DNA of 64,000 bases from an uncultured delta proteobacterium (lineage in GTDB: Bacteria; Desulfobacterota; Desulfomonilia; Desulfomonilales; Desulfomonilaceae). The position numbers and the translations under genes were made by a program. The stretch lies in the NCBI GenBank assembly GCA_963789265.1, contig CAWBKB010000004.1, positions 192,001-256,000 of the forward strand. Direction: 5' to 3'. Below, piece after piece: positions 4,180-58,414 of this stretch (position 1 is the stretch's first letter; each line of letters begins with the position of its first letter). Under the pieces are notes generated by a model. That model worked only from the letters and a program-made list of their open reading frames with translations. It made no database searches and had not been told where the DNA came from.

Positions 4180-5445
4180 ATGAAAGCAAAAGAATCCTAC
4201 GCCGGATTCCCTCCACTCTCCGAAGTTGACCACATAGTGGAGGCTTTGGTCCACGATCCGCCCGATCGGCGATGGCGTATAGTGCGGGATTTATTCCGCA
4301 TTGACGACCGGGAGCGAACGCAGGAACTGATTACCAGGCTTCAACCGTACCTTTACCAAGTCGAAGATTTTCGGGTCAAATCACGTATAACCATAGCCTT
4401 GCAAGCGCTGCACCACCCGGGCGACACAGAGGGGTATCGGCTGATCAAGGGAAAGGGAGCTTTCCAAATGTCCGATCTTGAATCTTGCCGGGGCAAGCAA
4501 TCGGGACAGGAAGTCTTGCGGCACAACTTCGCTCCAGTCGTGGATTTTCATATTCATCCCAAAGTGCCGGATCTGAAATTATTTGCCGACCTGAGCCGGG
4601 CCGGGATCGCCTATGCGGTTATTCTCGCGACGGATACCGATCCCTCGGATGTTGACCGACCTGAAATCAGAGATGAGTTGCGAAAGGAATATTCGGGTTG
4701 TGCCCAATCGCATCGCCTGCCGTTCGACAAGGTGCTCGGACAAATAAGAGCAAGCCTCTATTCTCCGACTCATGTCACGAATCAGGACGTTGCAGACTGG
4801 GTAGAAGACTATCCGGACATTCTCTTCGGGTTCGGATCGGTAAACCTGTCGAAGGACAAATCGTACGTGGAGCGAAAACTCGAAGAGATCCAAGAGCTGA
4901 GGCTTCCGGGAATCAAGCTGCTGCCGTTTTCACAGTTCTTCAATCCTGCTGACAGTGAAAACGTTAATTTGCTCTTCGATTATTGCAGGCAGACCGGCTC
5001 CATCGTCCTCTCTCATACCGGCTGCGCCGCGGGACCGTTCGAGATCCTTGAACTGAGCCGGAATGCACATCCGGGAAATTGGGAACCGGTACTGAAAAAG
5101 TATCCGGACGTCCCCCTCGTCCTGGCCCATTGCGGATCGTACAGTAGTTATATTCCCGGAATTTGGCTCTATGAGGCCCTGCAAATGGGGAAGAAGTTCA
5201 GAAACGTTTTCGCAGACATAGCCGCGGTAGAATGGCTACTGGACCGGGAAACGGTCGTCAAAGAAATTCGAAAGACTATCGGATTCGATCGCATTCTTTT
5301 CGGCACGGATTACCCGTTGCCGCTTTCAGCAGGAGTAAGTATGGCCTATTTAGTCAGTGGGATTAAAGCAAATATTCTTCTGACTGAAAAGGAAAAGCGC
5401 AAAGTCCTGGGCGGAAACGCGGCTGAACTACTGGATATAGGATAA
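4180..5445 (+). CDS. Amidohydrolase_2-family metal-dependent hydrolase with an N-terminal helical extension of about 115 aa
   Basis: VDFHIH, GIKLLP, SHTG, VLAHCG and ILFGTDYP metal-ligand motifs. Confidence 0.85.
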   Translation: MKAKESYAGFPPLSEVDHIVEALVHDPPDRRWRIVRDLFRIDDRERTQELITRLQPYLYQVEDFRVKSRITIALQALHHPGDTEGYRLIKGKGAFQMSDLESCRGKQSGQEVLRHNFAPVVDFHIHPKVPDLKLFADLSRAGIAYAVILATDTDPSDVDRPEIRDELRKEYSGCAQSHRLPFDKVLGQIRASLYSPTHVTNQDVADWVEDYPDILFGFGSVNLSKDKSYVERKLEEIQELRLPGIKLLPFSQFFNPADSENVNLLFDYCRQTGSIVLSHTGCAAGPFEILELSRNAHPGNWEPVLKKYPDVPLVLAHCGSYSSYIPGIWLYEALQMGKKFRNVFADIAAVEWLLDRETVVKEIRKTIGFDRILFGTDYPLPLSAGVSMAYLVSGIKANILLTEKEKRKVLGGNAAELLDIG

Positions 5446-5487
5446 ACGGCAGAATGTGCCTTCCGGGTCTTTGTGAAAGGCGATTAA

Positions 5488-6325
5488 GTGGAACAAGGGG
5501 ATCTTACTAAGGAAATCACCGCATTAGCGGCGTTGCCGGACCACAGGATTGAGCTGGCTTCCGCAGCCCTCACCATCGCAAGGTCGGAATACCCGGATCT
5601 TGACGCATCGCGGTACGAAGAGCAGTTGAACGACATGGCCGCAACACTGAATCCAAGAATCCGGCAGATACCGACGTCGGAACGCGCACTCGATGAACTT
5701 AATAGCCTCATATTCAAGGAAGTCGGATTCCGCGGGAACCGCGATGATTACTACGATCCCAAAAACAGTTTCCTCAACGAGGTTCTTGACCGGAAACTCG
5801 GCATTCCTATCACTCTTTGCGTTGTTTACATGGAAGTGGGCAGGCGAGTAGGTCTGCCCCTTTACGGAATAGGTTTCCCGGGCCACTTCTTGACGGGTTC
5901 TGGTCACTGAAAAGAGCAGAGTTTTCATCGACCCGTTCAATGACGGGAAAATTCTCAGCGAAAGCGACCTTGTCAGGATGCTTCATGGTGGATTCGGCAG
6001 ATCGTTGCCTTTCAAGCAAAATCTCCTCGATCCGATGTGGCCCAAACAGATCTTGGTTAGGCTTCTGCGCAATTTGAAAGCCATTTATTGGCGCCGATCC
6101 CAATATTTAAGGGCGCTCCAGATGATCCAATGGATCTTAATCTTGAATCCGGATTCTGCCCCGGACCTTAAAGAGAGGGGGCTAATCTCTGAAGCCATAG
6201 GCGATATCCCAGGAGCAATCGAGGATCTTCAAAGATATTTGGAGCTCACCACCGCAGCGGAAGACGAACAGATCGTAAGAGCGACGATCGAGCGGCTGAA
6301 GAAGAGGAAGACTACGATTCATTGA
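5488..6325 (+). CDS. SirB1/YchA-family (transglutaminase-like core plus TPR) protein; one apparent +1 frameshift near 5899
   Basis: GFRGNRDDYYDPKNSFLNEVLDRKLGIPITL and FPGHFL, then in the shifted frame VFIDPFNDG, RLLRNLK and a TPR-like ERGL segment. Confidence 0.85.
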
Positions 6326-6747
6326 GGACTACCCATAATGGGAATAGACTAATAACGGTGCGAGAAATGGAAAGCGAAGAGCAAGATCTTCAAGAGCTGG
6401 AGAGAGCTAATCCAATTATACAGGTGGCCCTGGAGTTGGGCATCAAAGTCCGAGGCAGCGTGGGAAAGTGCTTCAAAGAGGACAGGCATGCCTCAGACGG
6501 TGTAAAGTCAACTCTCTTTTTCAACCCTGCGCGGAATAGGTTTCAGTGCCGAGACTGCGAGGACGTGGGGGGCACTGTTATAGATTTGGTGTGCCAGTAT
6601 AACGGATGGGAGAGACAAAAGGCCATAGAGTGGTTGCGTCACCGGGTGGAATTTGACCGGTACACAAAGGGTCTCTATCATGGAAAAGGGCGGAAAAAGC
6701 CGTCGGTCGCAAATGCAACGCAAACTGGGAAGGCAGAGGTAAGGTAA
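6322..6747 (+). CDS. Stand-alone CHC2-type zinc-finger protein (primase zinc-binding-domain-like); alternative start at ATG 6367
   Basis: C-x5-H...FQCRDC-x3-GGTVIDLV...AIEWL matches the primase ZBD pattern. No TOPRIM domain. Basic C-terminal tail. Confidence 0.75.
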   Translation: MRTTHNGNRLITVREMESEEQDLQELERANPIIQVALELGIKVRGSVGKCFKEDRHASDGVKSTLFFNPARNRFQCRDCEDVGGTVIDLVCQYNGWERQKAIEWLRHRVEFDRYTKGLYHGKGRKKPSVANATQTGKAEVR

Positions 6748-6752
6748 CAGGT

Positions 6753-8562
6753 ATGGGTTCCGAGTGGAATGCAGATGAAGAAAATCAAAGCCTCCCGAAG
6801 AATTCCACTGTCCGAGAGGTTGCTGAAGCAATTGTGAAGGAAGCGGAAGAGCACAGCCCACCTGAAGACACGCAGAGGAAAGACGAAATCGAGAAACGGA
6901 TACGGGAATCGGAGAAGAAACGACTCATGTTGGCCGAGGCGCTTCACTCTTCCAGAATAGAAATTCAGAGGCTTATGCCGGGCCGGGACAGGGACGCTGA
7001 TAGGGCTCTTCCGTTCGGAGTCTTTGTCCAGTACGGTCCGGATCGAGAGACTGTCGTTATAAAATACCACGGTCGGCTTCATGAAACGAAAGTGCTGCCC
7101 CAGGAACCGGGAACGGAAGACGAACCGGCAAAGGGAACTTTCCATGCCATACGACAGATCGGCAAGAAAAGGGATATTCGCCGAAGAGGGTTCAGGAAAG
7201 GGGAGTTGCTCCTACTTAACAATGACCTCCAGGTATTGGAACCGAGAGGATTTGACCTTGTTTGTGGAGGACTTGCTACTGTGCAGCAGATCCTCAGTGA
7301 GGAAAAGTTGCTGGTCAAAACGGTGGGCGATGAGAATCTCGTGGTGACGAGAGCAGCTCCCCTTTCACTCGTCAAAATAGTCATTGGCGACAAAATTGAA
7401 TACGACCACGAGTCTCTCTTCGCGTACGGGCTCCTCCCCAAGAGCGACGTGGATCGTTTGGCTCTGGAGAAGGTTCCTGACATTCACTATTCCGATATCG
7501 GGGGGCTCGAGGAAGCAGTCGAGTTGATTCGAGACGCCATCGAATTGCCGCACCTATACCCGGACTACTTCAAGGAGCATCGACTGGTCCCCCCGAAAGG
7601 GATTCTGCTCTACGGCCCCCCTGGATGCGGGAAAACGCTCCTTGCCAAGGCAGTGGCCAATAGCCTTGCAAAGCGAATTGAAGCGGAGACGGGGGAGCGA
7701 AAGGTAGGCTTCTTTCTCAACGTAAAGGGCCCGGAACTCCTCAATAAGTACGTCGGCGAAACTGAACAGGCTATCCGCGACTTGTTCGCCCGTGCCAGAA
7801 ACCAAGCCAGGCACCGCACTCCTGTAATAATCTTTTTTGATGAGATGGATTCCATGTTTCGGGTGAGAGGGTCCGGGATATCATCGGACATGGAAGCAAC
7901 GATTGTCCCGCAGTTCCTGGCCGAACTCGACGGCCTTGAACCTCTGGAAAACGTCGTAGTTATCGGAGCTACCAATCGAGAGGATCTTATCGACCCTGCC
8001 GTGCTAAGGCCCGGCCGCCTCGATCGCAAGATTCGAATTCCACGCCCAGAACGAGCGGCCGCACTCGAGATCTTTCCCAAGTACCTTGACTCCCGACCTT
8101 CCACTTGACCCTGTGCTCGTCGAACGCTGCGGAGATCCGGGCCGAGCCATAGACTGGCTCATTTCGACGTTGGTCGAGGAGCTGTACGGGATGACGAAGG
8201 AAAACGAACTCCTGGAAATAACTTATGCCGACGGAACTCAAACGATTCTGTATCTCAAGGATTTCGTGAGCGGAGCCATCATTGAACACATTGTCAACCG
8301 GGCAAAGCTGTCCGCGGTAAAAGATCTGGTCAACAGAGGGACAAGAGGTATCACTTTCGATCATCTGCAGACGGCGCTCCGTCGGGAATTCGAAGAAAAT
8401 GAGGATTTGCCCAGCAACACGAATCCAACGGAATGGTACCGGATAATAGGTTCAGGTGGAGACAGAGTAATCAGGATTCGCTCTTTATTCTGCAAGAGAG
8501 TCGCTATTTGCGAAGAACAGAAGCCTGGAGAGTTTTTGGAGGTAACCGACCGCCTCAAATAA
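6753..8562 (+). CDS. arc: ARC/Mpa-type AAA+ ATPase; apparent +1 frameshift near 8087
   Basis: N-terminal coiled coil, LEKVPDIHYSDIGGL, Walker A GPPGCGKT, FLNVKGPELLNKYVGETE, Walker B IIFFDEMD, R-G-S-G-I-S-S-D, and the Mpa-specific ENEDLPSNTNP. Confidence 0.93.
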
Positions 8563-8587
8563 ATGGGCTGAATATATGTGAGGGAGT

Positions 8588-10142
8588 ATGAGCATACCCA
8601 AGGTGGTTGGCATTGAAGAAGAATACGCAATCCACTTGCAAGGAGACCACGGTCTTACACCATTTCAGGCCTCCTGTGCACTCGTAAATTCGTACGCTCG
8701 CAAGGTAGGGCTGCGAGCACCTGGGATTAAACTGCTCTGGGATTACGGTCATGAGACGCCATTCCACGATTTTTCGCGGAGATCTCTTCGGAAAGAGTAC
8801 AGGCCAGGAAATCGTCTCCTCCGCAGAAAATCTTCGTCTTAACGCAGTGTTGCCCAACGGCGCCAGACTGTATACGGACCACGGGCACCCCGAATATTCG
8901 ACACCGGAGTGTCTGAGTGCCAGAAACGCGGTTGCTTGTGACAAAGCGGGGGAGCTGATTTTTCGGGAAGCTCTTGCCGCGGTGAGAGAATTGATGCCCC
9001 GGCTGAAGATCGGGCTGTTCAAGAACAACATCGACTATCAGGGGCACAGCTACGGGTGTCACGAGAACTACCTGATGGATGCGCGGGCACACGAAGAATG
9101 CTTCGTTCGCAGCCCGGAGAAAGCGGTGCGAATCCTGGTACCGTTTCTCGTCACTCGCCAGCTATTTGCGGGAACAGGCCGGGTCGGCTCAGCGAAGCCG
9201 CATGATCCATCGGTTCCGTACCGGATGTCGCAGCGGGCCGACTTTATCGAGACTATCTTCGGTTTGGAGACCATGTACTCGAGGCCCATTATCAACACCC
9301 GGGCAGAGCATCACGTGGATCCGAAACGTTTTCGGCGACTGCACTTGATCCTGGGTGACGCAAACATGAGCGAGTTCGCGGGCTTTCTCAAGATCGGCAG
9401 CACTCAAATAGTGCTACAGATGCTGGAAGACGGTTTCCTGACTGAAGACCTGACGCTCAAGGACCCGGTCAAGGCTATGCGAACGGTGGCGAAATTCGAC
9501 TCCCGGCTCGAACTGGCCGACGGTCGCACTATAAGTCCTCTGGATCTTCAGAGGCTGTTTCTGGCGGCAGCCAAACGGTACCATCGATCCGGGCACGGTT
9601 CTCAGGTACCTGATGCCGATCTGATTTTGCAAGCCTGGGCGTACGCTCTGGATGGATTGGAGAAACTCAGGCTTTCCGAAGACTTTGAGTTTGTGGAGGA
9701 CCCTCTGAACTTGAGCAAGCGTCTGGATTGGGTCATAAAACTGTGGTTGATTCATCGCTACCGAGAGAGCAAAGGGTGCTCGTGGGAAACCCAGGAGCTA
9801 AGTGTATTTGATCTGCAATATCACAACGTTGAACCTGACAGCGGCTTGTTCTGGCATCTTCAGAGTAAGGGCTTGGTTGATAGAATATTGGAGGACGATG
9901 AGATCTCGCGGGCAGTCAGAGAGGCTCCGCCCGACACCAGAGCCTACTTTCGCGGAAAGTGCATAGAAAAGTTCCCGAACGAGATCCACTTTGTTAACTG
10001 GGAAGTCGTGGGCTTCGATCACGGCGAAAGTCATCGCATGATACCGCTTCTCAACCCCCTGAAGGGCACCAGGGACCAATTCCGGGAAGTCTTTGAGATG
10101 TGCACGAATTCCAGGGAATTGGTGAAAATGGTCCAGGCATGA
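8588..10142 (+). CDS. dop: Depupylase/deamidase Dop; apparent +1 frameshift in a T-run near 8772
   Basis: VVGIEEEYAI, Dop-loop WDYGHETP, NGARLYTDHGHPEYSTPEC, SYGCHENYL, RRLHLILGDANMSE and PPDTRAYFRG. Confidence 0.9.
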
Positions 10143-10174
10143 ATGAGACTGATGGATCTGACTGGAGATAATTC

Positions 10175-10378
10175 ATGAGCGAATCTAGGCAGACACAAAT
10201 CCCTCAGAGGAAAAGAAGTAAGCAAAAGGACTCGACTGAAACAGAGACCTCGCTTCCGTCGATCTCCGGCGGAGAAAAGAAGCAGAAGCTTGAAGAGTTG
10301 GATGAGTTCATGGAAAGCGTGCTCCAAAAGGCAGGTGAAGAGTTCCTGGATGAGTTCAAACAGATTGAAGGGGAGTGA
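10175..10378 (+). CDS. pup: Pup-like prokaryotic ubiquitin-like protein with non-canonical C-terminus (QIEGE)
   Basis: 67 aa with a disordered N-terminal half and an acidic helical C-terminal half that aligns without gaps to the Pup C-terminus (VL-x4-E-x-F-x5-Q-x2-G-E). Lies between dop and pafA. RBS GGAG. Confidence 0.85.
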   Translation: MSESRQTQIPQRKRSKQKDSTETETSLPSISGGEKKQKLEELDEFMESVLQKAGEEFLDEFKQIEGE

Positions 10379-10381
10379 CAT

Positions 10382-11872
10382 TTGCAAACCCGGGTCTTCG
10401 GCACAGAGTGCGAGTATGCCCTGTTTTGCAGCCCCAGGGATGGGGAATCAAGAATCTATCTGGATGGCGAGCCGCTGCTGGAACATTTGAAAGGACTCAC
10501 ACCTTACCTAGTCGCTTCCTTGAAGGCCACAGGACGACCGTATGCCGGTGAGTTTCTGGGAAATGGAGGCCGGTTTTACATCGATCGCGGGGCGCATCCC
10601 GAGGACGCGACACCGGAATGTGCCAGGGTGAGGGATGTTGTCGCTCATGAAAAAGCGGGTGATCGAATCGTCCAGGAACTGGTCGAATTTGCCGGCTCAC
10701 ACATGGCCGAGGTCGGTAAGCGCGAAAAGATACGAATCTTCAAAAATAATGTGGATTCGTTCGGGAACACTTACGGCACTCACGAGAATTATCTCGTCAC
10801 GCCTCAAGCTATGGAAAACATCAGATTTATGGTTCCATTCCTGGTCAGTCGCCAGATATTTTCGGGTGCGGGCAAAGTGGCAACCGGGGGCACGCAGGGT
10901 CAAAGTTGGTATCAGTTGACTCAAAGGGCAGACTTTATCGACCGGATCTTCAGTGACAGAACGTCGCAGGTCCGCGGCATCATAAATCTTCGCAAACGGG
11001 AGATACCCAAACACGGACAAAACCTGCGGCTTCACCTCCTGGTTGGAGACTCCAACATGTCCGAGGACTCGCTCGGGCTAAGGGTTGGGACGACCGCCCT
11101 TGTACCAAGGCTGCTCGAAGAAGATTCTTTCGAGAATTTCCCGGCACTGGCATCCCCGGTAAAAGCCATGCGGGACATTTCCCAATCTTTTGGTAGCACT
11201 GTGGAACTCGAAAATCGCCGCCACCGATACCATGCTCTGGATATACAAGAAATCTATCTCAACAGAGTCCATAATTTCTTCGAAGATCACGAATCCAATA
11301 ATTGGGAAAAAGAAATCCTCGACCTTTGGAGACGTACGCTGGCAGGTCTGCGAGAAGTAAAAATATCGCACGAGAACTGGAACCTTGAGGATGACCCACA
11401 GGACTTGCACCGCAGAATCGACTGGCTCATCAAACTCTGGCTCATCAACAGGGTGCAGCACCAGAGCGGGCTCGATTGGCAAGATCCTCGACTGAGGCTG
11501 TTGGACGTGACATATCACGACCTCGATCCCCGAGAAGGCCTTTTCCAGAGGTGCCAGGATCTGGACCTGATTGACCGTATGGTAGACGAGCAGGAAATCC
11601 GCAAGGCCCAGACCAAACCACCGCAAGACACCCGGGCTTGGACCAGGGGCACCATTATCCAGCATGCCTGGGGGAGAAACGTCGAGACAATCGTCAAGAA
11701 CTGGGAAGCCGTTCAGATTATCGCAAAACCGCAGGGATGTGAGTCTTCTCACCCTTTCGGCAGACATCGGCGCATGGTCAATCGACTGGAAATAAAACTG
11801 GAAGATCCACTCAGGGCGGAGGACACAGCCGCTCTGGAAAAAGTGATGAAATTCGCTGAAGCTTGGAACTGA
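10382..11872 (+). CDS. pafA: Pup-protein ligase PafA
   Basis: MQTRVFGTECEY, FLGNGGRFYIDRGAHPE, KNNVDSFGNTYGTHENYL, RLHLLVGDSNMSE and PPQDTRA. TTG start 3 nt after the pup stop. Confidence 0.9.
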   Translation: MQTRVFGTECEYALFCSPRDGESRIYLDGEPLLEHLKGLTPYLVASLKATGRPYAGEFLGNGGRFYIDRGAHPEDATPECARVRDVVAHEKAGDRIVQELVEFAGSHMAEVGKREKIRIFKNNVDSFGNTYGTHENYLVTPQAMENIRFMVPFLVSRQIFSGAGKVATGGTQGQSWYQLTQRADFIDRIFSDRTSQVRGIINLRKREIPKHGQNLRLHLLVGDSNMSEDSLGLRVGTTALVPRLLEEDSFENFPALASPVKAMRDISQSFGSTVELENRRHRYHALDIQEIYLNRVHNFFEDHESNNWEKEILDLWRRTLAGLREVKISHENWNLEDDPQDLHRRIDWLIKLWLINRVQHQSGLDWQDPRLRLLDVTYHDLDPREGLFQRCQDLDLIDRMVDEQEIRKAQTKPPQDTRAWTRGTIIQHAWGRNVETIVKNWEAVQIIAKPQGCESSHPFGRHRRMVNRLEIKLEDPLRAEDTAALEKVMKFAEAWN

Positions 11873-12147
11873 TGCGCAGTCAAATGAGCGACAATCCTGG
11901 ATAAGATACGGTGGGGCAATCCTGCCCACGCGGGACTGCCTGTCCCGCGTTCCGCGGGATCACTCCGGACTTCGATTCGGGGGTAGCGCCGGCGTCCCTG
12001 CCGGCGATTCGCCAACAACCCCGCGTCCCGCGGGGAGGCCGGTCCTACTGGATGCCCGCGTATGCGGGCATGATGAAATGTAGGGGCGGGTTTCAAACCC
12101 GCCCCTACCAGAAACACGGTGTCACTTACTTGAAAGCCAGTCGGTAT
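11866..12147. repeat. Composite MITE-like repeat containing REP-type palindromes
   Basis: Shares ends and internal segments with 50378-50627. Its right part recurs inverted at about 18463-18530. Contains GTAGGGGCGGGTTTCAAACCCGCCCCTAC. Confidence 0.7.
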
Positions 12148-12175
12148 GAGACCCGGAAAGGTGCTTAGAAACGAT

Positions 12176-12876
12176 ATGGACCGGGAGATGGAACAAATTC
12201 CAGAGAATGCGACCGGTCGCGATGGAATCCGTCACGTTCTCTTAGTGCAATACGCACTTCACGAGGCAAACCATCATTCAGAGTCTGCCGGCAGTGCGGC
12301 GGATAGTTTCCCCACGGTCCCTAAGGCCCACACTCTTGCCGATATATACAAGTGCTTGCACCAGGGACAATTCGGGGTTGGGCACAGCATCGACGATCCG
12401 GTCAGGTTTGCCGGCAGGCTTGAACTTGAACTCGTCAAAGCCGACCCCGACTCTGCCGACCCGATTCTGGAAACGGTTTCCTCCGTGGCTCAGTTTTTCG
12501 TGTCAACCTGCGGCCGTTTCGACGGGCATTTGCGGGTCGCGACGAATTAGCGTCGCGTCTCTTGGTAGGGCTTTGCCTTAATTCCGCTACAAGGCAGAGG
12601 GGAACGATGAACGATTTCATCGAATCTCTGGAATGGTTTAGGGATTTGAACAACAGCGGAGAGTTGGCGGTTCAAGGCAGATCGTACATGTTCCCGAATG
12701 AGCAGGCAAACCGATTCGTAACCGAAGTGGCGTATTGCATTCATACGTTCGGAAATATACCGGTCTTGAGCCATTCATCGGTCTATAAGAAGCACAATTC
12801 CCCGTCCTACAGGGTGGTGGACCGAGAAGCCTTGGAACATTCGCCTTTGGCTTATCTTCTTAAAAAAATACAATGA
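12176..12876 (+). CDS. Conserved hypothetical protein; apparent frameshift near 12487
   Basis: The N-terminal part (DIYKCLHQGQFGVGH) joins the shifted-frame part (RVNLRPF...SHSSVYKKHNSPSYRVV). The stop overlaps the next ATG. Confidence 0.6.
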
Positions 12877-23144: not shown

Positions 23145-25433
23145 TCACGCGATTCCTTGTTTCGAGTACTTTTCCAAGATGTTAATCATTTGAGGGTACC
23201 TACGCTCGCTAGCTATCGAAAACGGTGTCCTTCCATTCGCATCAGCTACGTCGGTGGATGCTCCCCAAGCAAGCAGCATTTCCACCACGTCCGCTTGGGA
23301 TTTGTCGCATGCCCAGATGAGGGCTGTACTGCCATCATGATCCGCGGCTTCGAGATCCGGTCCGGTAGCAAGGACAAGTTTCACAACCTCGGTCCGGCCA
23401 CTAATGCAGGCCCAGATCAAGGCTGTGCGTCCGCTTTTGTCCTGGGCGTCTATAGCGACGTCGTGGTCCAGCAAGGTTTCCACGATTTCCGGGGTTCCAT
23501 AGAGCGCGGCCCACATAAATACTGTTCTCCCGGCATTGTCGTGAATGTTGACGTTCGCTCCGTGAGTTAGCAGAAGCTTGGCAACCTCCTCGCGATTTCG
23601 ATAACATGCCCACATCAAAGCGGTCCTCCCAGCCTTGTCTTTGGCGTTGAGGTCGACAACAGCCGGCAGCAGATGCTCTACATCTTCCAGACTACCCGCT
23701 ATGCACGCCTCTATGAGCACTTCGGCATCTATTTCGACCTCCCCATTCTCGTCCAACACGATCGAAGAAGTGGAGGCGACCCCGGGTGCGGATTCCTCTA
23801 TATCGGCACTCAAGTTCGCGTCTGCGATCTGCGGCGGAAAATCCACTTTGGCACCCGCATCTGTGAGCAGGCGGACCACATGCCAGTGGCTTTTTGTCGA
23901 CGCCCAGTCCACAGCAGTAAGTCCAGCCGCATCTTTCATCTCAACATCAGCTCCGTGGTCCAGGAGAAATTCCACCACTTCGCTCAGCCCTTTGTAAGAG
24001 GCTCTCATTAAAGCAGTGAGCCCATGCTTGTTTGCAGCGTTAATCTGCGCGCCATGTTCCAGCAGGATTCGCGCAACCTCTGTTTGCCCAACGGAGCAGG
24101 CTTTCATCAGAGCGGTCTTCCCTGCATTGTCCTGCATTTCCACACTGGCGCCGCGTTGCAGCAGGAGTTGCACGATTTCCGCGTGACCTTTGTATGCGGC
24201 CCTCATAAGAGGCGTAAGACCATATTTGTTTCCGGCGTTGACATTTGCTCCTAAGTCCAGTAGCCGCTGCACTGCGTCAATCAGCCCGGAACCCGCAGCA
24301 TCAATCAAATCTTTATTTCCGTATTTGGAGAGTGCTTCCACGAGGAATCCGCGCTCCAGAGTCAGTTCCAGAGTGTCGGTATCACCTCCGTCCGGGGCCT
24401 CCAACATCGCCTCAATAGTCTTTTCGGCTTCCGATGTGATAGCTGCCCCTCTCTCCAAGAGAAGTTCAACCACCTCGCCGTGCGATTCCTGGGAGGCCCA
24501 AACCAGAGCGGTCATGCCGGCCTTGTCTCCAATGTCAAAATCAGCTCCACGGTCCAACAAGAGGTTTACCACTGAGATACGGCCGACCCGAGCACCCCAC
24601 ATGAGGGCGGTGCGTCCTGCTTTGTCCTGGCGATTGATTTCGACACCCGTGTCCAGAAGAGATTTCACAACGGCCAAATGGCCTCTATCCGAGGCCACCA
24701 TGAGAGGGGTCCATCCTGCATTGTCTTCGATGTCGGGATCGGCCCCCTTTTCAAGCAGGAGTTCGACTATTTCAAGAAAGCCTCTGTGAGCCGCTTTCGC
24801 GAGAGCGGTTCTCCCGGCCTTGTCAACTGCATTCACGTCTAGTCTATGCTTGAAAAGCAAGTTCATCATGCCAACATGGCGATCGAACGCCGCCATCATC
24901 AGAGGGCTTCTGCCGGCATCGTCTTTCGCGTTGGGATTCGCCCCTTTGTCCAAAAGTCTCGCGACTATGATTGGGCGGCCGGCTGTCAAGGCAACCATAA
25001 GAGCGGTCTTGCCATCTGAAGTCCGAGCCTCTACGTTGGCACCGGCGTTCAGGAGTATGCCGAACAATTCCAGGTGTCCATAATATACGGCAGCCATCAG
25101 AGGGGTGTACCCTTGATTGTCCTGGCCTTCAAGGTCAGCGCCCAGTCCTAAGAGGACCCGGGCTGCCATTGTTTGGCCTGTAATGCAAGCCGCCATCAAG
25201 GCCGTGCACCCTTTTTCGTCTTTTGCATTCACATTGGGCTTCCGTTCAAGAAGTTCCTTGACTACCCGATAATGACCGCCGTACATGGCCTTCATCAAGG
25301 GTGTAGCGCCGGATACGTCCCGCGAGTCGACGCTCACACCTTTTGCCAAAAGGTGTCGCACTTGATCGGGCTGATTCTTTTGGACAGCCTCAAACAGTGC
25401 TCTGCTTTTGTCTCGTACAAAAAGCATCGCCAT
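23145..25433 (-). CDS. Ankyrin-repeat protein (762 aa, about 18-20 repeats)
   Basis: Repeated G-x-T-[AP]-L-M-x-A...V-x-x-LL-x-x-GA-D-V-N units separated by two acidic linkers. Confidence 0.95.
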   Translation of the reverse strand: MAMLFVRDKSRALFEAVQKNQPDQVRHLLAKGVSVDSRDVSGATPLMKAMYGGHYRVVKELLERKPNVNAKDEKGCTALMAACITGQTMAARVLLGLGADLEGQDNQGYTPLMAAVYYGHLELFGILLNAGANVEARTSDGKTALMVALTAGRPIIVARLLDKGANPNAKDDAGRSPLMMAAFDRHVGMMNLLFKHRLDVNAVDKAGRTALAKAAHRGFLEIVELLLEKGADPDIEDNAGWTPLMVASDRGHLAVVKSLLDTGVEINRQDKAGRTALMWGARVGRISVVNLLLDRGADFDIGDKAGMTALVWASQESHGEVVELLLERGAAITSEAEKTIEAMLEAPDGGDTDTLELTLERGFLVEALSKYGNKDLIDAAGSGLIDAVQRLLDLGANVNAGNKYGLTPLMRAAYKGHAEIVQLLLQRGASVEMQDNAGKTALMKACSVGQTEVARILLEHGAQINAANKHGLTALMRASYKGLSEVVEFLLDHGADVEMKDAAGLTAVDWASTKSHWHVVRLLTDAGAKVDFPPQIADANLSADIEESAPGVASTSSIVLDENGEVEIDAEVLIEACIAGSLEDVEHLLPAVVDLNAKDKAGRTALMWACYRNREEVAKLLLTHGANVNIHDNAGRTVFMWAALYGTPEIVETLLDHDVAIDAQDKSGRTALIWACISGRTEVVKLVLATGPDLEAADHDGSTALIWACDKSQADVVEMLLAWGASTDVADANGRTPFSIASERRYPQMINILEKYSKQGIA

Positions 25434-32672: not shown

Positions 32673-32864
32673 CCCCTTTCAGCGTCAGCCCGTGTAATTT
32701 GATCATAGCACTCAAGCGGTAGCGTGATGCCCTCACCATACCAGAATTGCCTCAGAATCAAAATTTGTTATCTTACGGAAGCAACGCGCGGGGTCCCGGT
32801 TCCAAATTCACTGTTCCAGTTAATTGAGACGGGGCCCCAATCGAAAAGGTCGAAAAGAGAGCAA

Positions 32865-34038
32865 TGGATGAACCCTTCTCACAATAAGAGTTTTAACCTC
32901 CAGATCTTGCTGATTTTGGCATTGGGCCATCTCGTGACCGACATTTACCAAGGCGCGCTACCGGCAGTCCTTCCCTTCCTTAAAACGAAGCTTGCCATTT
33001 CCTATACGATGGCCGGCGTGATTATGATGGCCGCGAATTTTACCTCCTCGGTCGTCCAGCCGGTGTTCGGCTATTTGTCGGACAAGAAGGAGAAGATGTT
33101 CTTGCTGCCGCTGGGCAGTTTCCTGGCGGGCGCAGGCATGTGCCTTGTCTCCGTGCCCGACAATTACCTCCTGGTCCTGTTTCTGGTAGTAGTCAGCGGC
33201 CTGGGAGTGGCCGCCTACCACCCTGAAGGTTACAAAACCGCCTATTTCTTCACCGGCGACAACGTGGCTACCGGGATGTCGGTCTTTTCCGTGGGCGGCA
33301 ACTTGGGTTTTGCTCTGGGACCTATAATTTCGCTTTCCATTATCACGTATCTGGGATTTGGTTACTTCCCCTTGATGGTGATCTTTTCTCTTATATTTCT
33401 TTCGCTTCTGCTTTACGCGTGGAATTCCCTTGCCCGTAAAAAGCCGGATGTGGCCATGCGAGCGAAGGGCATGGAGGCAGCGCGAAAAGGGGCGTACAGT
33501 TTCTCTTTTTCTCATTATCGGGACTGTGATTATGAGATCCTGGACCCAGATCGGGCTCATGACCTATATTCCCTTCTATTACATTGACATTTTAAAAGGA
33601 GAGCCTCTGTACGCAGGCAAGCTCGTGTCAGCCCTTCTTCTCGGGGGTGTTGTGGGCACAATCGCGGGCTCCATTATAGCCGACAGAATCGGCCACAAGA
33701 GGTACCTGATTCTTTCCATGGCCCTTACAAGCCTTTTATTCCCTCTGATCTTCGTAGCACACGGTTTCATGCTGTTCATCACTCTTGGCGTGTTCGGCAT
33801 GGTGCTGATTTCCACATTCACCGTCACTATCGTAATGGCGCAACAGCTTCTGCCCAGAAATCTGGGAATCGCATCCGGGCTCATGGTGGGATTTGCAATC
33901 GGCACGGGCGGACTTGGCGTAACAATACTAGGAGTGATCGCGGATCATTTTGGGGTGCTGAATGCTTTGAAATCCATAATGGTCCTGCCGGTGGCAGGGC
34001 TATTGCTCTGCCTGCCGATCAGGTATCAGGGGAATTAA
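32865..34038 (+). CDS. MFS transporter, Fsr (fosmidomycin-resistance)-like; apparent frameshift near 33498
   Basis: GHLVTDIYQG, QPVFGYLSD, AAYHPEG, GGNLGFALGP and ASGLMVGFAIG. Confidence 0.85.
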
Positions 34039-41673: not shown

Positions 41674-43687
41674 TTGATTGCAAAGATCTTGATCGCTAAC
41701 AGGGGCGAAATCGCTTCAAGGATAATTCGTACGTGCAAACGCATGGGCATCGGCACAGTTGCGATCTATTCAGAGGCTGATTTTCGCTCTCCGTATGTGC
41801 AGGAGGCGGATGAAGCAACATGCGTCGGTGCAAGTCCTTCGCAGGAGTCGTACCTCGTCAGGGAAAGAATCGTTGAAGCAGCCCTTGCCCATAGTTGCCA
41901 GGCAATCCATCCGGGTTACGGTTTTTTGTCCGAGAACTCGAAATTCGCTGAAATGGTGGCCGAAGCCGGTCTTGTTTTTGTCGGCCCTTCCGCGGCCGCA
42001 ATTGCTATGCTGGGGGACAAAGTGGCATCTAAGGCCCTCGCAATACGCGCGGGTGTGCCTGTAGTCCCAGGATACCACGAAGCCCTTGGAGACCCTCAAG
42101 AGGCCGCTGCCATCGCAGTGAAGATCGGGTTCCCCGTCTTGCTGAAACCGGCCGCAGGAGGAGGCGGCCGAGGAATGCGCATCGTAAACTCAAAGGAAGA
42201 GATCGCTCCGGCCCTCGCTGCATGTCGCGAAGAAACGAGAAAAAGCTTTGGGGACGAAAGAATATTCATGGAGCGCTATATTTCCAAGCCGCGCCATATA
42301 GAGATTCAGATTGTAGCCGATCAACATGGCAACGTTGTCCATCTAGGGGAAAGGGAATGCTCAATACAGCGCCGCTATCAGAAGGTTATTGAAGAAACCC
42401 CGTCTCCGGTGGTCGATGAGGCGCTCCGCGAAAGAATGGGCCGAGTCGCCTGCGCCCTCGCCGTTGAAGCCGGGTACACCGAGCGCGGGGACGGTGGAAT
42501 TTATCCTGGACGGGGAAAAGAATTTCTATTTCCTGGAAATGAATACTCGCCTTCAGGTTGAACATCCCGTGACAGAGATGGTGACCGCCGTGGATCTGGT
42601 TGAATTGCAGATCCGTGTCGCCGCGGGGCAGCCGCTGCCCGTCTCGCAAGAAGGCGTGGAAATGAAGGGGTGGGCTATAGAAGCCCGCATTTGCGCCGAA
42701 GATCCGGCCCGGGGCTTTGTCCCCACCACCGGCATGGTTACGCGTTACGCAGTCCCCCGCGGCAAGAATGTGCGAGTGGACAGCGGCATTGACGCGGGAA
42801 GTGTAATAAGCATCTATTACGATTCATTATTGGCCAAGGTGATTGCGTTTGGTGAGAGCAGAGAAGAGGCCAGGAGGACTCTTGTAAGGGCCCTGAACGG
42901 GTACCACATAGAAGGATTGATCACCAATGTTGATTTTGCCAATGCCATCATAGGTCATCCTGCGTTTGCCGCCGGGGAATTGTCTACGGACTTTATCGAG
43001 GAACACTTTGGCGGGGGACAATCCAAGATTCCGCCCGACGGAGAAAAGATTCGTTACATGGTTATAGGGGCTGCATTGATATACCAGACGCGCCAGAGTC
43101 TCGCGCGGCAATCTTTGAAGCCGATGACAGCACTGGTTGGCGGGCCGCCGGCACGGCTCGCTTCTCATCATTACGTCGTGAAAGTCGATGAAGATGTATT
43201 CGAAGTAGAACTCAAAGGGGATCAGGGATCCCGACGCTGGATCGCCCGGGTGAATGACAAATCGTATGAGGTGATCACTCCGGAATTCGAATACTATCGC
43301 CGCCGGCTCAAGCTTAAGATTGACGGCACTTACCGTATGTTCCGTTTTCAGTACAGCGAAAATCACATACAGGGTTTTTTTTGTGGGATTGTTCGCATGA
43401 TCGAAATCTACACTCCGCAGGAATGGAGCCTAACGCATTACATGCCGCGAGAAAAGAAGATCGTTCCGGAGAACGTTCTCAAATGCCCGATGCCCGGCCT
43501 GCTGGTCGCGGTATCTGTTCAAGAGGGTTCTTATGTCCGGCGTGGTGACGAGCTTTTACGCATGGAGTCTATGAAAATGGAAAGCGGTATTGCATCCCCG
43601 GTGGACGGGCAGGTTGAGAAAATCCTTGTTCATTCAGGCCAAACGGTAGAAACGGATGAGACGCTCATGACTTTCAAGCTTTCATGA
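41674..43687 (+). CDS. pccA: Biotin carboxylase plus biotin carrier subunit (propionyl-CoA carboxylase alpha-like); apparent +1 frameshift near 42481
   Basis: ILIANRGEIA, HPGYGFLSEN, GGGGRGMR, ERECSIQRR, LEMNTRLQVEHPVTE and biotinylation motif ESMKME. Confidence 0.88.
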
Positions 43688-52898: not shown

Positions 52899-53579
52899 CT
52901 ACGTGCCGTGAATCTCACACGTGGCACAATCAATGGAAGCTAGTTGCTGACATAGTTTTGCTCCGGTCATGGCATCGGGTGCCCAATAATCCGATCCCAC
53001 ATATTTGCAGACTTTTTCATTAGTCAACCCGCCCCCGATAATCGTGGGCACAGGAGGCCTGCCTCGTTGCGTATCTTCATGTAATAAGGTGATGGTTTCA
53101 CGCATCGTATCGTACGATACGGTCAACAGCCCTGAAATACCAACAGCGTGTGGCGAGCATTCTCGTGTGGCCTTCAAGAAATCTCCAGGCGACACATCTA
53201 CACCAAGATCGATCAGCTCAAAGCCGTGGCACCGCAGAATCACCCCGAAGAGGTTTTTGCCAATGTCGTGGATGTCTCCTTGAACCGTCCCCAATACTAC
53301 CCGCCCGGACGCTTTTACGTGAATACTATTCTCAAGAATGCGTTGCAACATTTCGGAGACCTGGCGCATTATCTCCCCTGCCATCATAAGCCCGGAAAGA
53401 TAATAACGACCCTGCTCGTAATTGGCTCCGACGTAGCCTAGGGCTTGCTGGCAGCTTTCTAGAATGCTCAAAGGCGGTTCTTCTTTTTCCAGTAGACGCT
53501 GAACCTCTTTCAGCACTTCCTGCTCGTTCAAGTCCGTGAGGAGAGTAATCAACTCTAGATGCCGGAGATCCGGATTCAT
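52899..53579 (-). CDS. Corrinoid (B12-binding) protein
   Basis: GTVQGDIHDIGKN, DLGVDV, SGLLT and IGGG. Confidence 0.9.
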   Translation of the reverse strand: MNPDLRHLELITLLTDLNEQEVLKEVQRLLEKEEPPLSILESCQQALGYVGANYEQGRYYLSGLMMAGEIMRQVSEMLQRILENSIHVKASGRVVLGTVQGDIHDIGKNLFGVILRCHGFELIDLGVDVSPGDFLKATRECSPHAVGISGLLTVSYDTMRETITLLHEDTQRGRPPVPTIIGGGLTNEKVCKYVGSDYWAPDAMTGAKLCQQLASIDCATCEIHGT

Positions 53580-53612
53580 AGTACGACCTCTGTATTCGTC
53601 TGAAAACCGGCC

Positions 53613-54383
53613 CTAATCCCAGATACCCACTTTGGCTGAAAAATTCAGCCTATCTGAGGAACAGATGAAATAGCCGAAGCTAACGGGCTGGTTGTTGAAA
53701 TCGAAAAACGTGTGCTCCAGGCGAAACGCGGGAGTCGCCGGCTGAACTCGCAACAGCGATGCGTCTTCCTCATTCAGCAAAATGGATCTGATTACCAACA
53801 GGCCTTTCTTGATATCGGTCTCTCCTGTGCCGCTGAAAAGACCATGGAGAGAAGTCACGTCCATTTCTGCTTCCATGATAGGACGCATAGGGTCGTATAT
53901 CAGGTGTTCTTCATGACAGAGAATGGGGTCGTCGTTTCTTAGCAGTAGACGGCGAATATAGATTACCCTTGTGCCAGGCGGAATCGCCATCGCGTGAGCG
54001 ACGTTTTCCGAAGCAGGTACAATTCGCGTTCTGAGAAGTTTAACCTTCGAATGTTTTTTGTCCCGAAATAGGTTCTGTAACTCATCCAAAGCGAACGTGG
54101 AGCTTCCTAACTCCAAACCTTTGACAAATGTTCCGCGTCCTTGGACTGTGGTCACAAGGCCCTGATCCAAAAGCATGTTTACGGCCCGACGGACCGTCAT
54201 GGGACTGACTGCGTAACGGCTACAGATGGCCGCTTCCGATGGGAGTTGGTCCCCAGGTCGGTACTGCCCGGACGATATTTGCTGCCTCAAGAGCTTCACA
54301 AGCTGGGCATACGCGGGTTCGTATGAATCTCGATTTATGGTCTGCGGTGTTTCCATCAATTCAATTGCGTCCTTCACCATCAA
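53613..54383 (-). CDS. GntR-family (HutC/UTRA) transcriptional regulator
   Basis: PGDQLPSE...VSPMTVRRA...QGRGTFV wHTH plus UTRA domain. Confidence 0.92.
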   Translation of the reverse strand: MMVKDAIELMETPQTINRDSYEPAYAQLVKLLRQQISSGQYRPGDQLPSEAAICSRYAVSPMTVRRAVNMLLDQGLVTTVQGRGTFVKGLELGSSTFALDELQNLFRDKKHSKVKLLRTRIVPASENVAHAMAIPPGTRVIYIRRLLLRNDDPILCHEEHLIYDPMRPIMEAEMDVTSLHGLFSGTGETDIKKGLLVIRSILLNEEDASLLRVQPATPAFRLEHTFFDFNNQPVSFGYFICSSDRLNFSAKVGIWD

Positions 54384-54571
54384 CGTCGATCTCTATATAT
54401 CTATATAAGACGACTGTCCAGGGTCAAGTCAAATGGCCCATAATCCGCATTCGCTAGTCCATAGGCGCAGGTTCGACCTGCCTCTGGGGTGGATGATGGC
54501 GCATAAGGTGCCGACGGTTTTCGGGGATTCCTATGGCGGACCCAAAAACTGGGCGTCACCCATCTTTTTGC

Positions 54572-54608
54572 TTGACTCAGGCGTCACCTCTATATATAAC
54601 TATATAAC
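54572..54608 (+). promoter_or_regulatory. Sigma-70-type promoter of the corrinoid operon overlapping a TATA-rich putative operator
   Basis: TTGACT-N17-TATAAC. CTCTATATATAACTATATAA resembles CTCTATATATCTATATAA at 54391-54408. Confidence 0.55.
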
Positions 54609-54682
54609 TGTATATCATGAGTAGTCGAGCGGCTCGAGCCCCTAGAGGAGTTTGCAAGGATTACGGAGGAGCAGGTTTTGTA

Positions 54683-55282
54683 ATGCACCTAATTGTAGTC
54701 ACCGGATTTCTCGGGTCAGGCAAAACCACCTTCATAGTGAAACTTGCCAAGATTGCTATGGAAAAGGGCTTGAAAGTTGCCATAATAGTTAACGAATTAG
54801 GCGAAATCGGCATTGACGACCAATTCATGAAAGAGCTTGGATTCAATGTCCGGGAAATTCTCGGGGGCTGCATTTGCTGCACGCTTGTCGGCGATTTGGT
54901 CCAAACCATCAATAAACTTCAGGCCGATTATTCACCGGATGTCGTCATTGTTGAACCCTCCGGAGCGGCCGATCCAAGAAACATTGTCGGTGCGCTCAGC
55001 ATGAATCCAATTGAGTCCCTAAGAAGTAAACGCCAGATTGCTTTGCTCGACCCGCTGCGTATGGAAATGCTGATAACCGTGGTGGAGCCACTGATCGTTT
55101 CGACGATTAGGCAAGCCGACCTGGTACTCATCAACAAGGCCGATACAGCGACCGCCGAGCAGATCGAATACACCCGACGTGTGGTTGATCAAGCCCATCC
55201 GGATGCCAGGGTCATGGTCATTTCTGCAAAGAATGATCCAGAGCCGCAGGTTTGGTCGGAGATTTCGTCATGCATGGGATGA
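54683..55282 (+). CDS. CobW/HypB/UreG-family (G3E) GTPase
   Basis: GFLGSGKTT, VNELGEIGID, GGCICC, EPSG and INKAD. Confidence 0.9.
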   Translation: MHLIVVTGFLGSGKTTFIVKLAKIAMEKGLKVAIIVNELGEIGIDDQFMKELGFNVREILGGCICCTLVGDLVQTINKLQADYSPDVVIVEPSGAADPRNIVGALSMNPIESLRSKRQIALLDPLRMEMLITVVEPLIVSTIRQADLVLINKADTATAEQIEYTRRVVDQAHPDARVMVISAKNDPEPQVWSEISSCMG

Positions 55283-55701
55283 TGCTTGAACCACTAGCCA
55301 TCCATATCCGCTTTGCGCTCTCTGCTCCAAAGCGGATTCAAGAATGGACTGAAATCTTAAAGCGTTTCCTGGAAACTTTGGCCGAGCTTTGCCACAAATC
55401 GGAGCCATGCATGATAGGCCATATTAAAGGGTTAGCACTTTTGGGTGGTAATCGGTACATGCGTGGAAGCGTCATCAGCCCCTCGTTACCCGCTCAAGTG
55501 GAAACGAATGTTTCAGAGGACCTTATCGAGTTGCCTCTAACGCTGAATATGTTGGTTTATGGACTGTCGCGAAGAAGCCTTGAGCGCAATGTAGAAAGGG
55601 CGGCCGTACAACTTGGAACGGCTTGGAGTGGAACGATTACGGTTGAACCCATCTCGGCGACAAATCACGGGGATAAGCCCGCCCCGCACCACGAACATTA
55701 A
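55270..55701 (+). CDS. Hypothetical protein, probable partner of the G3E GTPase
   Basis: IGHIKG motif. Overlaps the GTPase stop. Confidence 0.6.
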   Translation: MHGMMLEPLAIHIRFALSAPKRIQEWTEILKRFLETLAELCHKSEPCMIGHIKGLALLGGNRYMRGSVISPSLPAQVETNVSEDLIELPLTLNMLVYGLSRRSLERNVERAAVQLGTAWSGTITVEPISATNHGDKPAPHHEH

Positions 55702-56413
55702 ATGAAACCCTCCCGAACAAAAGTAATTGCCTGTGAAGTCTTGATAAATGAGATGCTGGACTTTATGCCGCCAGACATGGAGCACGAGGCTCTCGACGTG
55801 GGTCTCCACGTCAACCCGCAGTCATTGAAACGAGCATTGAGGGAATCGATCGAAAATTCGGCCGATACTTTCGATACGATCATCCTTGGTTACGGTCTGT
55901 GCTCCAGGGCAGTGGAAGGTTTGGGTTCCTCCAGCAGCACACTGGTGGTCCCCAGGGTAGACGATTGTATAGGGATACTCTTAGGTTCCCGGGAGGCGCA
56001 CAGGTCCGAAACGCTCCGGGAGCCCGGAACCTATTATCTCAGCCGGGGCTGGATAGATACCGGCAAGCACCTCTTCGAAGAGGTACGATTACATGGAAGA
56101 ACGCTTTGGTCCTAGTAAAGCCCGGAGTTTGATGGAGACGATGCTGAAGCATTACACACGCCTGGCATTTGTGAAGACGGGCCAAGAAGGGGATCTTGAT
56201 CGGTACCTGGATTATTGTCACAGGACAGCTCAGCGATTTGGGTTGCGTTCGGAGGAGATTACCGGGTCCCTGGCTTTGGTGAAGAAGATGATTTTTGGTC
56301 CATGGGATGAAGAGTTCGTCACGGTTCGTCCCGGCCAGGAAATACCGTATGAGGAATGGCTGCGGGATCCAAATCCGGCTCTGGAGCCGATATCAAGGGT
56401 CGCCCTCAAATGA
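55702..56413 (+). CDS. DUF1638-family protein; apparent +1 frameshift near 56082
   Basis: IACEV, GLH..P, LGYGLCS, VDDCIGILLGS, GTYYLSRGW and GPWDEEF. Confidence 0.8.
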
Positions 56414-56546
56414 GGAGAGATGCGACTTCTCCGCGCCTTATGCAGCCGCGGTACGAAATACGATGGGGACCGTCAGGGAATTACCGCAAGAACTCCCCGG
56501 CTCTTCGCGGGAAGAGGGGGGCAACATGGAGAGAAAGGAGGCAAGC

Positions 56547-57167
56547 ATGGGCAAATCACTGACAGAGCTGATAGGCGACCTCGAGGAAACCGCAGCTCTT
56601 GCCACAGTGCGGCAACAACTGAAAGATGGGACAGCTCCTCTTACGATCTTGAAAGATTGTCAGGCAGGCATGGTGGAGGTGGGGAAAAAGTTCGAAATGG
56701 GACAATACTTCATTTCCGATCTCATGATGTCCGGTGAAATCTTCAAGCAAATCCGGGAGATCCTTGCTCCGGAAATGAAAGAGGCCTCGGGGCTGTCCGC
56801 GGGAAAAGTTGTCATAGGCACGGTGGCCGGGGACATCCACGACATCGGGAAGGACCTGGTAGTGGGAATGCTCCGATCCGCTAACTACGAAGTGACCGAC
56901 TTAGGGGTGGACGTTCCGGCTGAGAGGTTCGTGCAGGCAGTAAAAGAAACTGGAGCCACCGTTGTTGGTCTATCCTGTTTGCTGACAATCGCTTTTGATT
57001 CAATGAAGACAACCATAGAAGCTTTGGATAAGGCAGGACTGCGATCCAAAGTGAAGGTGATGGTGGGCGGTGGCCCCATGGACGAGAAAGCCTGTTCATA
57101 CACCGGCGCCGATGCCTGGGGAAATGACGCCAATGCGGCGGTCAACTTTTGCAAGGAGTGGATATGA
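56547..57167 (+). CDS. Corrinoid protein (MtaC/OdmA-like)
   Basis: GTVAGDIHDIGKD, DLGVDV, LSCLLT and MVGGG. RBS AAGGAGG. Confidence 0.92.
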   Translation: MGKSLTELIGDLEETAALATVRQQLKDGTAPLTILKDCQAGMVEVGKKFEMGQYFISDLMMSGEIFKQIREILAPEMKEASGLSAGKVVIGTVAGDIHDIGKDLVVGMLRSANYEVTDLGVDVPAERFVQAVKETGATVVGLSCLLTIAFDSMKTTIEALDKAGLRSKVKVMVGGGPMDEKACSYTGADAWGNDANAAVNFCKEWI

Positions 57168-58306: not shown

Positions 58307-58414
58307 GGCTTCGAAACAAGAATATTCGTTTCTGGTTCGTCGTGAGCGGGGCCGATCACCTAGTAGGTTTGCGGTGGTCGGCCTTGTGTATCTTTTTTCA
58401 AAGGAAGCAGTCAA

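Follow-up and report, generated by a model that had tools for sequence, protein, structure and literature searches.

Can a bacterium make use of pupylation when it has no proteasome to receive the tagged proteins? The question is raised by a locus in a 64-kb stretch of contig C4 (CAWBKB010000004.1; the whole stretch of 64,000 nt is referred to below as the window) from the genome of a soil bacterium that is related most closely, among named groups, to Syntrophobacteraceae. On its plus strand the window carries, closely packed and in the order arc-dop-pup-pafA, the genes for an ARC-type ATPase, a Dop-type depupylase, the protein tag Pup and a divergent PafA-like Pup ligase, as identified from open reading frames (ORFs) and from Pfam and NCBIfam matches. 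We conclude that these genes probably constitute a complete system for pupylation in the absence of a proteasome, and that tagged proteins are probably unfolded or regulated and not destroyed. This conclusion starts from features that were read directly from the DNA, namely the gene content, the intact motifs of the ATPase, and the absence both of the proteasome genes prcB and prcA (prcBA) and of a docking motif at the end of ARC.

Search for proteasome genes in the genome and its relatives

The source assembly consists of 6,061,876 bases in 9 contigs and is 95.57% complete with 6.07% contamination. In the window, pup ends at position 10378 and pafA starts with TTG at position 10382, leaving 3 nt between them; the preliminary description of this DNA had stated that there is no space here for prcB or prcA, and the coordinates confirm it. 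The start assigned to pafA is supported by contigs of related strains, which have GTG at 10382, and by G001, a same-genus reference genome (88.7% DNA identity to the window; 88% complete) that has Val there.

A search of the whole assembly with PF00227 yielded one match, located on contig C1, which is HslV (NF003964, 277 bits) and whose gene adjoins ORFs that resemble, by eye, XerC and HslU. No other PF00227 match was found at E ≤ 0.01, and no proteasome-like peptidase was linked to the locus; this family presumably covers Anbu and BPH as well, for which no dedicated model was run. The same model detected the prcB and prcA genes of related loci at 68-135 bits. Hidden Markov models (HMMs) of our own, built from three prcB and three prcA genes of related loci and searched against six-frame ORFs of at least 50 codons, gave only HslV with the prcB model (E 0.0014) and nothing in the genome with the prcA model. 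Within the window, PF00227 matched no gene, and Pfam scans of the large ORFs (11, then 45) returned no match to a proteasome or peptidase family. The earlier claim that neither the operon nor the 64 kb contains 20S genes is therefore borne out by PF00227 and the window scans, and the genome-wide search for prcA, prcB and HslV that had been proposed alongside it produced only the HslV gene on contig C1.

Species-representative genomes were then scanned with a PafA alignment and the 80 nearest loci were compared. Genes for prcB and/or prcA were found directly upstream of pafA in 72 of them. Four of the other eight start within 350 nt of pafA, three have only pafA on that strand, and the last, L027, has the order arc-dop-pup-pafA with no space for prcBA; it comes from a metagenome-assembled genome labeled Syntrophobacteraceae (49% identity) and is the nearest named locus. 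A Dop/PafA pair was present in 13 of the 70 species genomes of the window's family, and none of these 13 locus-bearing genomes had a prcB-prcA pair according to PF00227. Nine of the 13 (G000, G009, G014, G070, G076, G077, G078, G081, and G083) possess one HslV-sized match to this family, and no match was obtained in G001 or in G082, which are 88% and 100% complete, respectively. In G071, an HslV-sized match was accompanied by a weak solitary extra one (27.6 bits). G072 also had a weak solitary extra match (21.3 bits), in addition to one that was HslV-like but partial (54.4 bits). Pup ligases were found in 11 of 401 sampled genomes of the phylum. Canonical prcBA loci occur in this phylum in G285, as detected with our own HMMs, and in G087, G132, and G111, which were judged by spacing only. 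A second family (G336 and G279; loci L126 and L127) has the same module as the window. In locus L129 of yet another family (G373; 5304-10574) there are no prc genes between pup and pafA, and the tag has an ordinary ending, ...QRGGE.

It is scarcely credible that proteasome genes exist in this organism and are absent from the assembly. Such a loss could be imagined in a genome that is 95.6% complete and divided among nine contigs, and G001, at 88% completeness, lacks even an HslV match. The canonical position of prcBA, though, is between pup and pafA, where only 3 nt are found here, and the prc genes of related loci keep to the site directly upstream of pafA with the frequency given above. Moreover, six of the 13 clade genomes that lack the prcBA pair are 99-100% complete, and the loss of the ARC motif described below agrees with a true absence.

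The ATPase, the tag and the two ligase-family enzymes

The two pieces of the window ARC matched TIGR03689 at profile positions 4-379 and 379-511 (448.8 and 131 bits), and the intact ARC ortholog of G001 scored 600 bits against a cut-off of 504.75. The invariant motifs are present (Walker A, GPPGCGKT; pore loop, KYVGE; Walker B, FFDEMD; and RPGRLD), and the closest relatives of solved structure are chains of Mpa/ARC (E 1.9e-138). Of the 48 related loci that have prc genes as well as ARC, 45 encode an ARC with a terminal [YF]L (GQYL in 34, GAYL in 6, GTYL in 2, GTFL in 2, and GHYL in 1), and the three exceptions (L041, L047, and L105) look like mis-framed calls. The terminal motif is absent from all four of the proteasome-less loci L027, G001, G009, and G014, from the window, and from eight further loci of the family; in the 11 family loci that were read, an ARC without the motif goes together with a Pup ending in Q[IV]EGE. 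Locus L128 of G285 (4405-11321, minus strand; arc-dop-prcB-prcA-pafA) has proteasome genes yet departs from the motif rule: its 742-aa ARC ends in ...RPSGDKI with no [YF]L.

The window ARC ends in ...CEEQKPGEFLEVTDRLK (final residues ...GEFLEVTDRLK), with its stop codon at 8560-8562 and no docking motif of the GQYL/HbYX type at the end. The preliminary description had reported this lack, which stands, and had likened the internal GEFL to GQYL, which does not: G001 has RECL and G070 has VETV at the corresponding positions, and other tails of the clade differ, so that GEFL is not a conserved docking motif and its likeness is due to chance. It had also cautioned that a single G>T change would place a stop after GEFL. 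The tail of G001 has the identical length and the same stop, and on this comparison the tail is genuine and not a read-through artifact. The C-termini compared, as had been suggested, were ...EEQKPGEFLEVTDRLK in the window, ...EEQKPRECLEVTDHLK in G001 (…RECLEVTDHLK), ...EEQKPVETVEVTESLK in G070, ...EEKPTEIVEL in G009, and ...KAEEVVELG in G014; the length of the tail is shared with G001, and a terminal motif is found in none of the clade loci that were read.

The tails raise the question of whether ARC docks through its own C-terminus on a different protease, for example HslV, ClpP or another partner, and supplies it, in place of the 20S core, with tagged proteins. We regard this as unlikely, even though an HslV gene is present in the genome, next to an ORF that is HslU-like by eye only, and a loose E-x-[VLI]-[DE]-[VLP] patch is kept near the end of ARC in ~12 of 14 clade sequences (counted by eye), where more drift would be expected of a tail that has no use. 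On the other side, both the length and the sequence of the tail vary widely across the clade, and the tail is unlike the C-terminus of the HslU-like ORF. In addition, HslV and the locus are on different contigs (C1 and C4), and neither the scanned ORFs of the window nor the module elsewhere gave a Pfam match to a proteasome or peptidase family. A SirB1-like protein encoded upstream of arc was considered as the missing protease and was rejected by eye only: it has Pro-Ile-Thr where, as we take the motif to be, transglutaminase-like peptidases carry their catalytic Cys.

The window Pup had no Pfam or NCBIfam match. In a profile-profile comparison (hhalign) of 14 clade Pups with 14 canonical ones, the two families aligned to the last residue with 96.2% probability (E 2.6e-9), and the C-terminal half was conserved in 14 of 14 clade sequences. 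All 52 canonical Pups that were recovered end in Q[KR]GG[EQ]; a "CGQ" match to a Pup end in L073 was spurious. The window Pup ends in ...FKQIEGE, with the canonical di-glycine replaced by Glu-Gly, and the ending in the clade is Q[IV]EGE, with QVEGQ in L027; Q[IV]EGE was present in each of the 12 family Pups that were read, the window's among them.

PF03136 (Pup_ligase) matched both paralogs, including both pieces of Dop. In a quick LG+G4 tree, the upstream paralog fell inside the Dop clade with a support of 100. Its GxExE[YF] and HPE motifs are separated by 92 residues (85-91 in canonical Dop), and it bears the Dop signature D-H-G-HPEYSTP. The downstream paralog has 65 residues in this interval (56 in canonical PafA), no Dop-loop, and the sequence D-R-G-A-HPE, which is the PafA-type insertion of one residue after the catalytic Asp; in the same tree it joined at the PafA/Dop node with a branch length of 1.03. 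The signatures of both enzymes match the diagnostic positions that Table 1 of PMC7947786 gives for Dop and PafA. Neither enzyme is unusual in length, and alignments with canonical enzymes showed no large insert in either. The T-x-DEPHAD block of canonical PafA reads L-x-KREIPK in the window (PafA residues ~203-210; the last residue varies in relatives), and Dop shows a milder change at the matching block. The replacement of the first Gly by an acidic residue in Pup (residue 65), together with the turn from an acidic to a basic loop in the ligase, suggests co-evolution, with a possible swap of charges between ligase and tag.

Four single-base insertions or deletions within 6.6 kb split the SirB1-like, ARC, Dop, and His-rich genes of the locus. 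As a result, ARC lies in two window frames (6753-8108 and 8086-8562), as does Dop (8588-8842 and 8751-10142). Compared with G001, the window has a single extra base at ~5898, at ~8084 and at 8770-8774, and is one base short near 12488. Removal of one base in silico gave a 602-aa ARC with 91.0% identity to the 602-aa protein of G001 and, in the T5 run at ~8770-8774, a 517-aa Dop with 91.3% identity to that of G001, both gap-free; the SirB1-like and His-rich genes are single frames of 292 and 247 codons, respectively, in G001. A contig of the short-read run X1, a run in which 0.51 of the words sampled from the stretch occur, equals the window exactly over 7933-8256 except that one base is absent at 8084, and contigs of both X1 and X2 lack one base at 5898. 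The X1 and X2 contigs have depths of 2.4-5.4 and each is thin evidence alone.

These breaks might be real pseudogene lesions of a locus that is decaying in this strain. There are, after all, four of them in 6.6 kb, and the one in Dop lacks read cover. This explanation is nevertheless very improbable, as otherwise identical short-read contigs lack the extra bases at 8084 and 5898, ARC and Dop minus one base align with G001 over their full lengths without gaps or stops, and like breaks are scattered throughout the window, for example in the genes for an MFS transporter (32724-34035; broken at 32849/33498) and a biotin carboxylase (41674-43684; broken at 42481). The X1 and X2 contigs, together with the intact frames in G001, G009, G014, and L027, show that errors of assembly account for the breaks in ARC and in the SirB1-like gene, and the single-base breaks across the whole window indicate that the assembly as a whole carries such errors. 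Programmed frameshifting in ARC was rejected, since contigs of the same strain are without the extra base. Apparent pseudogenes in this assembly, with its frequent indels, consequently need read-level support.

A number of observations weigh against a complete, proteasome-independent pupylation system. The absence of 20S genes is not absolute in view of the 95.6% completeness and 6.1% contamination of the genome. The PafA-like protein scored 331.5 bits with the NCBIfam model for PafA and 314.3 bits with that for Dop, both below the cut-offs, and its matches to chains of solved structure were slightly better for Dop than for PafA (224 vs. 207 bits). It differs at 32 of the 104 columns that are invariant in 42 canonical PafAs (72 are kept), and because the T-x-DEPHAD block is among the changes, its ligase activity is not assured. 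The first OB domain of ARC was missed by Pfam and carries an insertion of ~27-30 residues, canonical ARCs have a longer N-terminal helix, and the loosely conserved acidic-aliphatic patch near the end could dock another partner. Finally, the Dop break near 8774 had no coverage in the short-read contigs, and dop may be a true pseudogene in this strain. The tail codons of ARC (8530-8562) are not clearly covered, with an X1 depth of 0 over bin 8292-8532 and of 1.44 over bin 8533-8773.

We nonetheless favor the degradation-independent, Corynebacterium-like role that had been proposed for this locus, since the searches found no 20S genes here and no prcBA pair in the 13 genomes, and ARC has no [YF]L at its end. 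The enzymatic activities, the recognition of Pup by ARC, and the unfolding of the tagged proteins are modeled on the characterized actinobacterial enzymes. Pup would need no deamidation, its terminal residue being Glu already. The ARC hexamer would recognize the tag and use ATP to unfold or disassemble the tagged proteins with no hand-over to a 20S core, and Dop would remove the tag, which would make tagging reversible. A complex prediction with two copies of ARC residues 30-120 and Pup gave a score of 0.02, which weighs neither way on binding.

Neighboring genes and the conserved module

The features of the locus and its surroundings are collected in Table 1.

Table 1. Features of the pupylation locus and adjoining genes, with positions in the window.
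Feature	Position	Strand	Evidence and remarks
Amidohydrolase-fold protein, 421 aa	4180..5445	+	PF04909 Amidohydro_2, residues 196-419, E 3.8e-31; first gene of the co-inherited module
SirB1-like transglutaminase-core2 + TPR protein	5488..6325	+	PF13369 and PF13371 on two pieces; 278 aa minus one base
Small protein, 141 aa	6322..6747	+	Weak CHC2 zinc-ribbon likeness (PF01807, E 0.012, below cut-off)
ARC/Mpa-type AAA+ ATPase, 602 aa after repair	6753..8562	+	TIGR03689; ends in ...KPGEFLEVTDRLK
Dop-type depupylase, 517 aa if one T is dropped	8588..10142	+	Pup_ligase (PF03136); best NCBIfam TIGR03688
Pup, 67 aa	10175..10378	+	C-terminus ...EEFLDEFKQIEGE; profile-profile match to canonical Pup
Divergent PafA-like Pup ligase, 496 aa, TTG start	10382..11872	+	Pup_ligase, E 7e-113
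Spacer, 273 nt, short palindromic repeats	11873..12145		blastn-short; copies dispersed through the genome
His-rich protein, family and fold unassigned (243-247 aa in relatives)	12146..12876	+	Split by a missing base near 12488
B12-binding radical SAM enzyme, 727 aa	12873..15056	+	PF04055; weak PF02310 below cut-off

Several neighbors travel with the pupylation genes. Among 41 relatives, orthologs of the amidohydrolase-like protein were found only in Pup-bearing genomes (four, G000 included), and the same was true of the His-rich protein (4/41). The place of the amidohydrolase-like gene is unchanged in L027 and the loci of the second family (f33), that of the 141-aa zinc-ribbon-like gene in G001, G009, G014, L027, and L126, and that of the radical SAM gene in G014, L027, and the second-family loci. 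The best NCBIfam model for the radical SAM protein was TIGR03975, a radical SAM C-methyltransferase of RiPP (ribosomally synthesized and post-translationally modified peptide) maturation, at 129.8 bits against a cut-off of 281.85.

The His-rich protein (243 aa) had no usable match in the ESM Atlas. Its predicted model (pLDDT 80.7) had no Foldseek match to the PDB at E ≤ 0.001, and a wide VIA-align search gave a best Z of 5.5, which is within the noise range for helical models. Its alignment (A3) shows the invariant motifs LHE, YK.LHQ..FGVGH, and HS..Y...N.P.YRVV, and the protein may represent an uncharacterized family of metal-binding enzymes.

The spacer at 11873-12145 consists of short GC-rich palindromes that have at least 59 further copies in the genome among the matches listed, and the summed depth of the X1 and X2 contigs was 228-616 in bin 11907-12147 vs. 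single digits elsewhere. The repeats look like elements of the repetitive extragenic palindromic (REP) type. Because this repeat-filled spacer follows pafA, the His-rich and radical SAM pair downstream of it may form a separate transcript. Outside the module, the upstream FIST-domain gene had no close match in five same-genus genomes without the locus, and the downstream phosphoesterase gene was present in all five; no clean insertion site for the locus could be drawn from these genomes.

In the second family, a full, bona fide acetate-CoA ligase gene (TIGR02188, 983 bits) is located between dop and pup (9591-11555 in L126; 8876-10840 in L127). This arrangement, the exact phyletic pattern that the amidohydrolase-like and His-rich proteins share with the Pup genes, and a gene order kept across genera at ~50% identity and in the second family all favor the idea of a dedicated regulator, as opposed to a general tool of proteostasis, whose role is bound up with the co-inherited neighbors and with acyl-CoA metabolism. 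We hold this to be doubtful. Co-inheritance in one island is no proof of joint function, 273 nt of repeat-filled spacer lie between pafA and the two genes downstream, the inserted acetate-CoA ligase gene was seen in a single genus, and the His-rich protein is without a fold or family match. A bolder version, to which we would give a similarly small chance, is that Pup tagging has been re-purposed in this clade as a dedicated, reversible switch within a co-inherited module of eight to nine genes, which adds the amidohydrolase-fold, zinc-ribbon-like, His-rich, and B12 radical SAM methyltransferase-like proteins to arc-dop-pup-pafA; it would control acyl-CoA enzymes, as the acetate-CoA ligase between dop and pup in the sister family hints, the Glu-Gly-Glu ending and the ligase loop would have co-evolved, and the ARC tail might dock a new partner.

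Two other regions of the window drew our attention. On the minus strand at 23148-25433, a 762-aa protein consists of ankyrin repeats over nearly its whole length (13 Ank_2 stretches), an unusual size for a bacterium. At 52902-59215, genes for corrinoid-binding proteins, an URO-D/MtaA-like methyltransferase, a pterin-binding enzyme, CobW, and a DUF1638 protein form a cluster that looks like a corrinoid-dependent methyl-transfer system.

Comparison with known pupylation systems

A literature search found no paper on a pupylation system in Syntrophobacter-type bacteria. To our knowledge, Corynebacterium is the only setting in which proteasome-less pupylation has been studied; it controls the release of iron from ferritin there, and disassembly driven by ARC has been proposed. 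The clade described here would be a second, possibly independent lineage, among anaerobic Thermodesulfobacteriota, that keeps ARC, Dop, Pup, and PafA without the 20S core. It supports the view that the pair of tag and unfoldase is useful alone, and it offers natural variation in the form of an E-G-E tag end, an altered ligase loop, and conserved neighbor genes.

With the canonical mpa/arc-dop-pup-prcB-prcA-pafA loci of Actinobacteria, Nitrospirota, Poribacteria, and others, the window shares ARC, the Dop/PafA pair, and the G-[EQ] end of Pup. It differs from them in the lack of prcB, prcA, and the terminal GQYL, and in having Q[IV]EG[EQ] in place of Q[KR]GG[EQ]. Outside Actinobacteria, a Pup-like tag with a different conserved ending, UBact (Lehmann et al. 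2017), has reportedly been found in Gram-negative phyla, in loci that are said to include proteasome genes.

Sporadic homologs in Proteobacteria are mentioned in a passage of PMC7947786, and sporadic deltaproteobacterial Pup systems, of a membrane-anchored kind, are described in PMC2588565. The Plesiocystis and Rhodopirellula loci of that article (Iyer, Burroughs and Aravind 2008) resemble ours in combining a non-actinobacterial Pup and its ligase without linked proteasome genes, in one case in a deltaproteobacterium. Their ligases have four transmembrane segments inserted and show linkage to a membrane protein (PMC2588565), whereas no large insert was seen in the alignments of ours, and the window also has ARC.

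The closest likeness is to the Corynebacterium glutamicum type. Passages of PMC3511204 describe corynebacteria as having pupylation genes with no proteasome subunit genes and with pup directly before pafA, and corynebacterial-type ATPases as being without the C-terminal proteasome-interaction motif; a passage of PMC8223512 describes the GQYL motif and, for C. glutamicum, a release of iron from ferritin that depends on pupylation and is independent of degradation, for which it cites Küberl et al. 2016. As far as these passages go, the window agrees in the order arc-dop-pup-pafA, in pup directly preceding pafA, in the absence of prcBA, in an ATPase without the motif, and in a Pup that ends in Glu. 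Unlike the Corynebacterium type, the window locus is non-actinobacterial, has E-G-E and not G-G-E at the end of Pup, encodes a far more divergent PafA, and is part of a conserved module with extra genes. In a tree of the 80 nearest loci, which contained no Corynebacterium or Micrococcus sequences, the window clade formed a separate long branch. Taken as a whole, the locus is best read as a case of Corynebacterium-like pupylation that does not depend on a proteasome, in a distinct clade outside Actinobacteria that has a tag ending of its own, a ligase that has diverged, and neighboring genes that are conserved.

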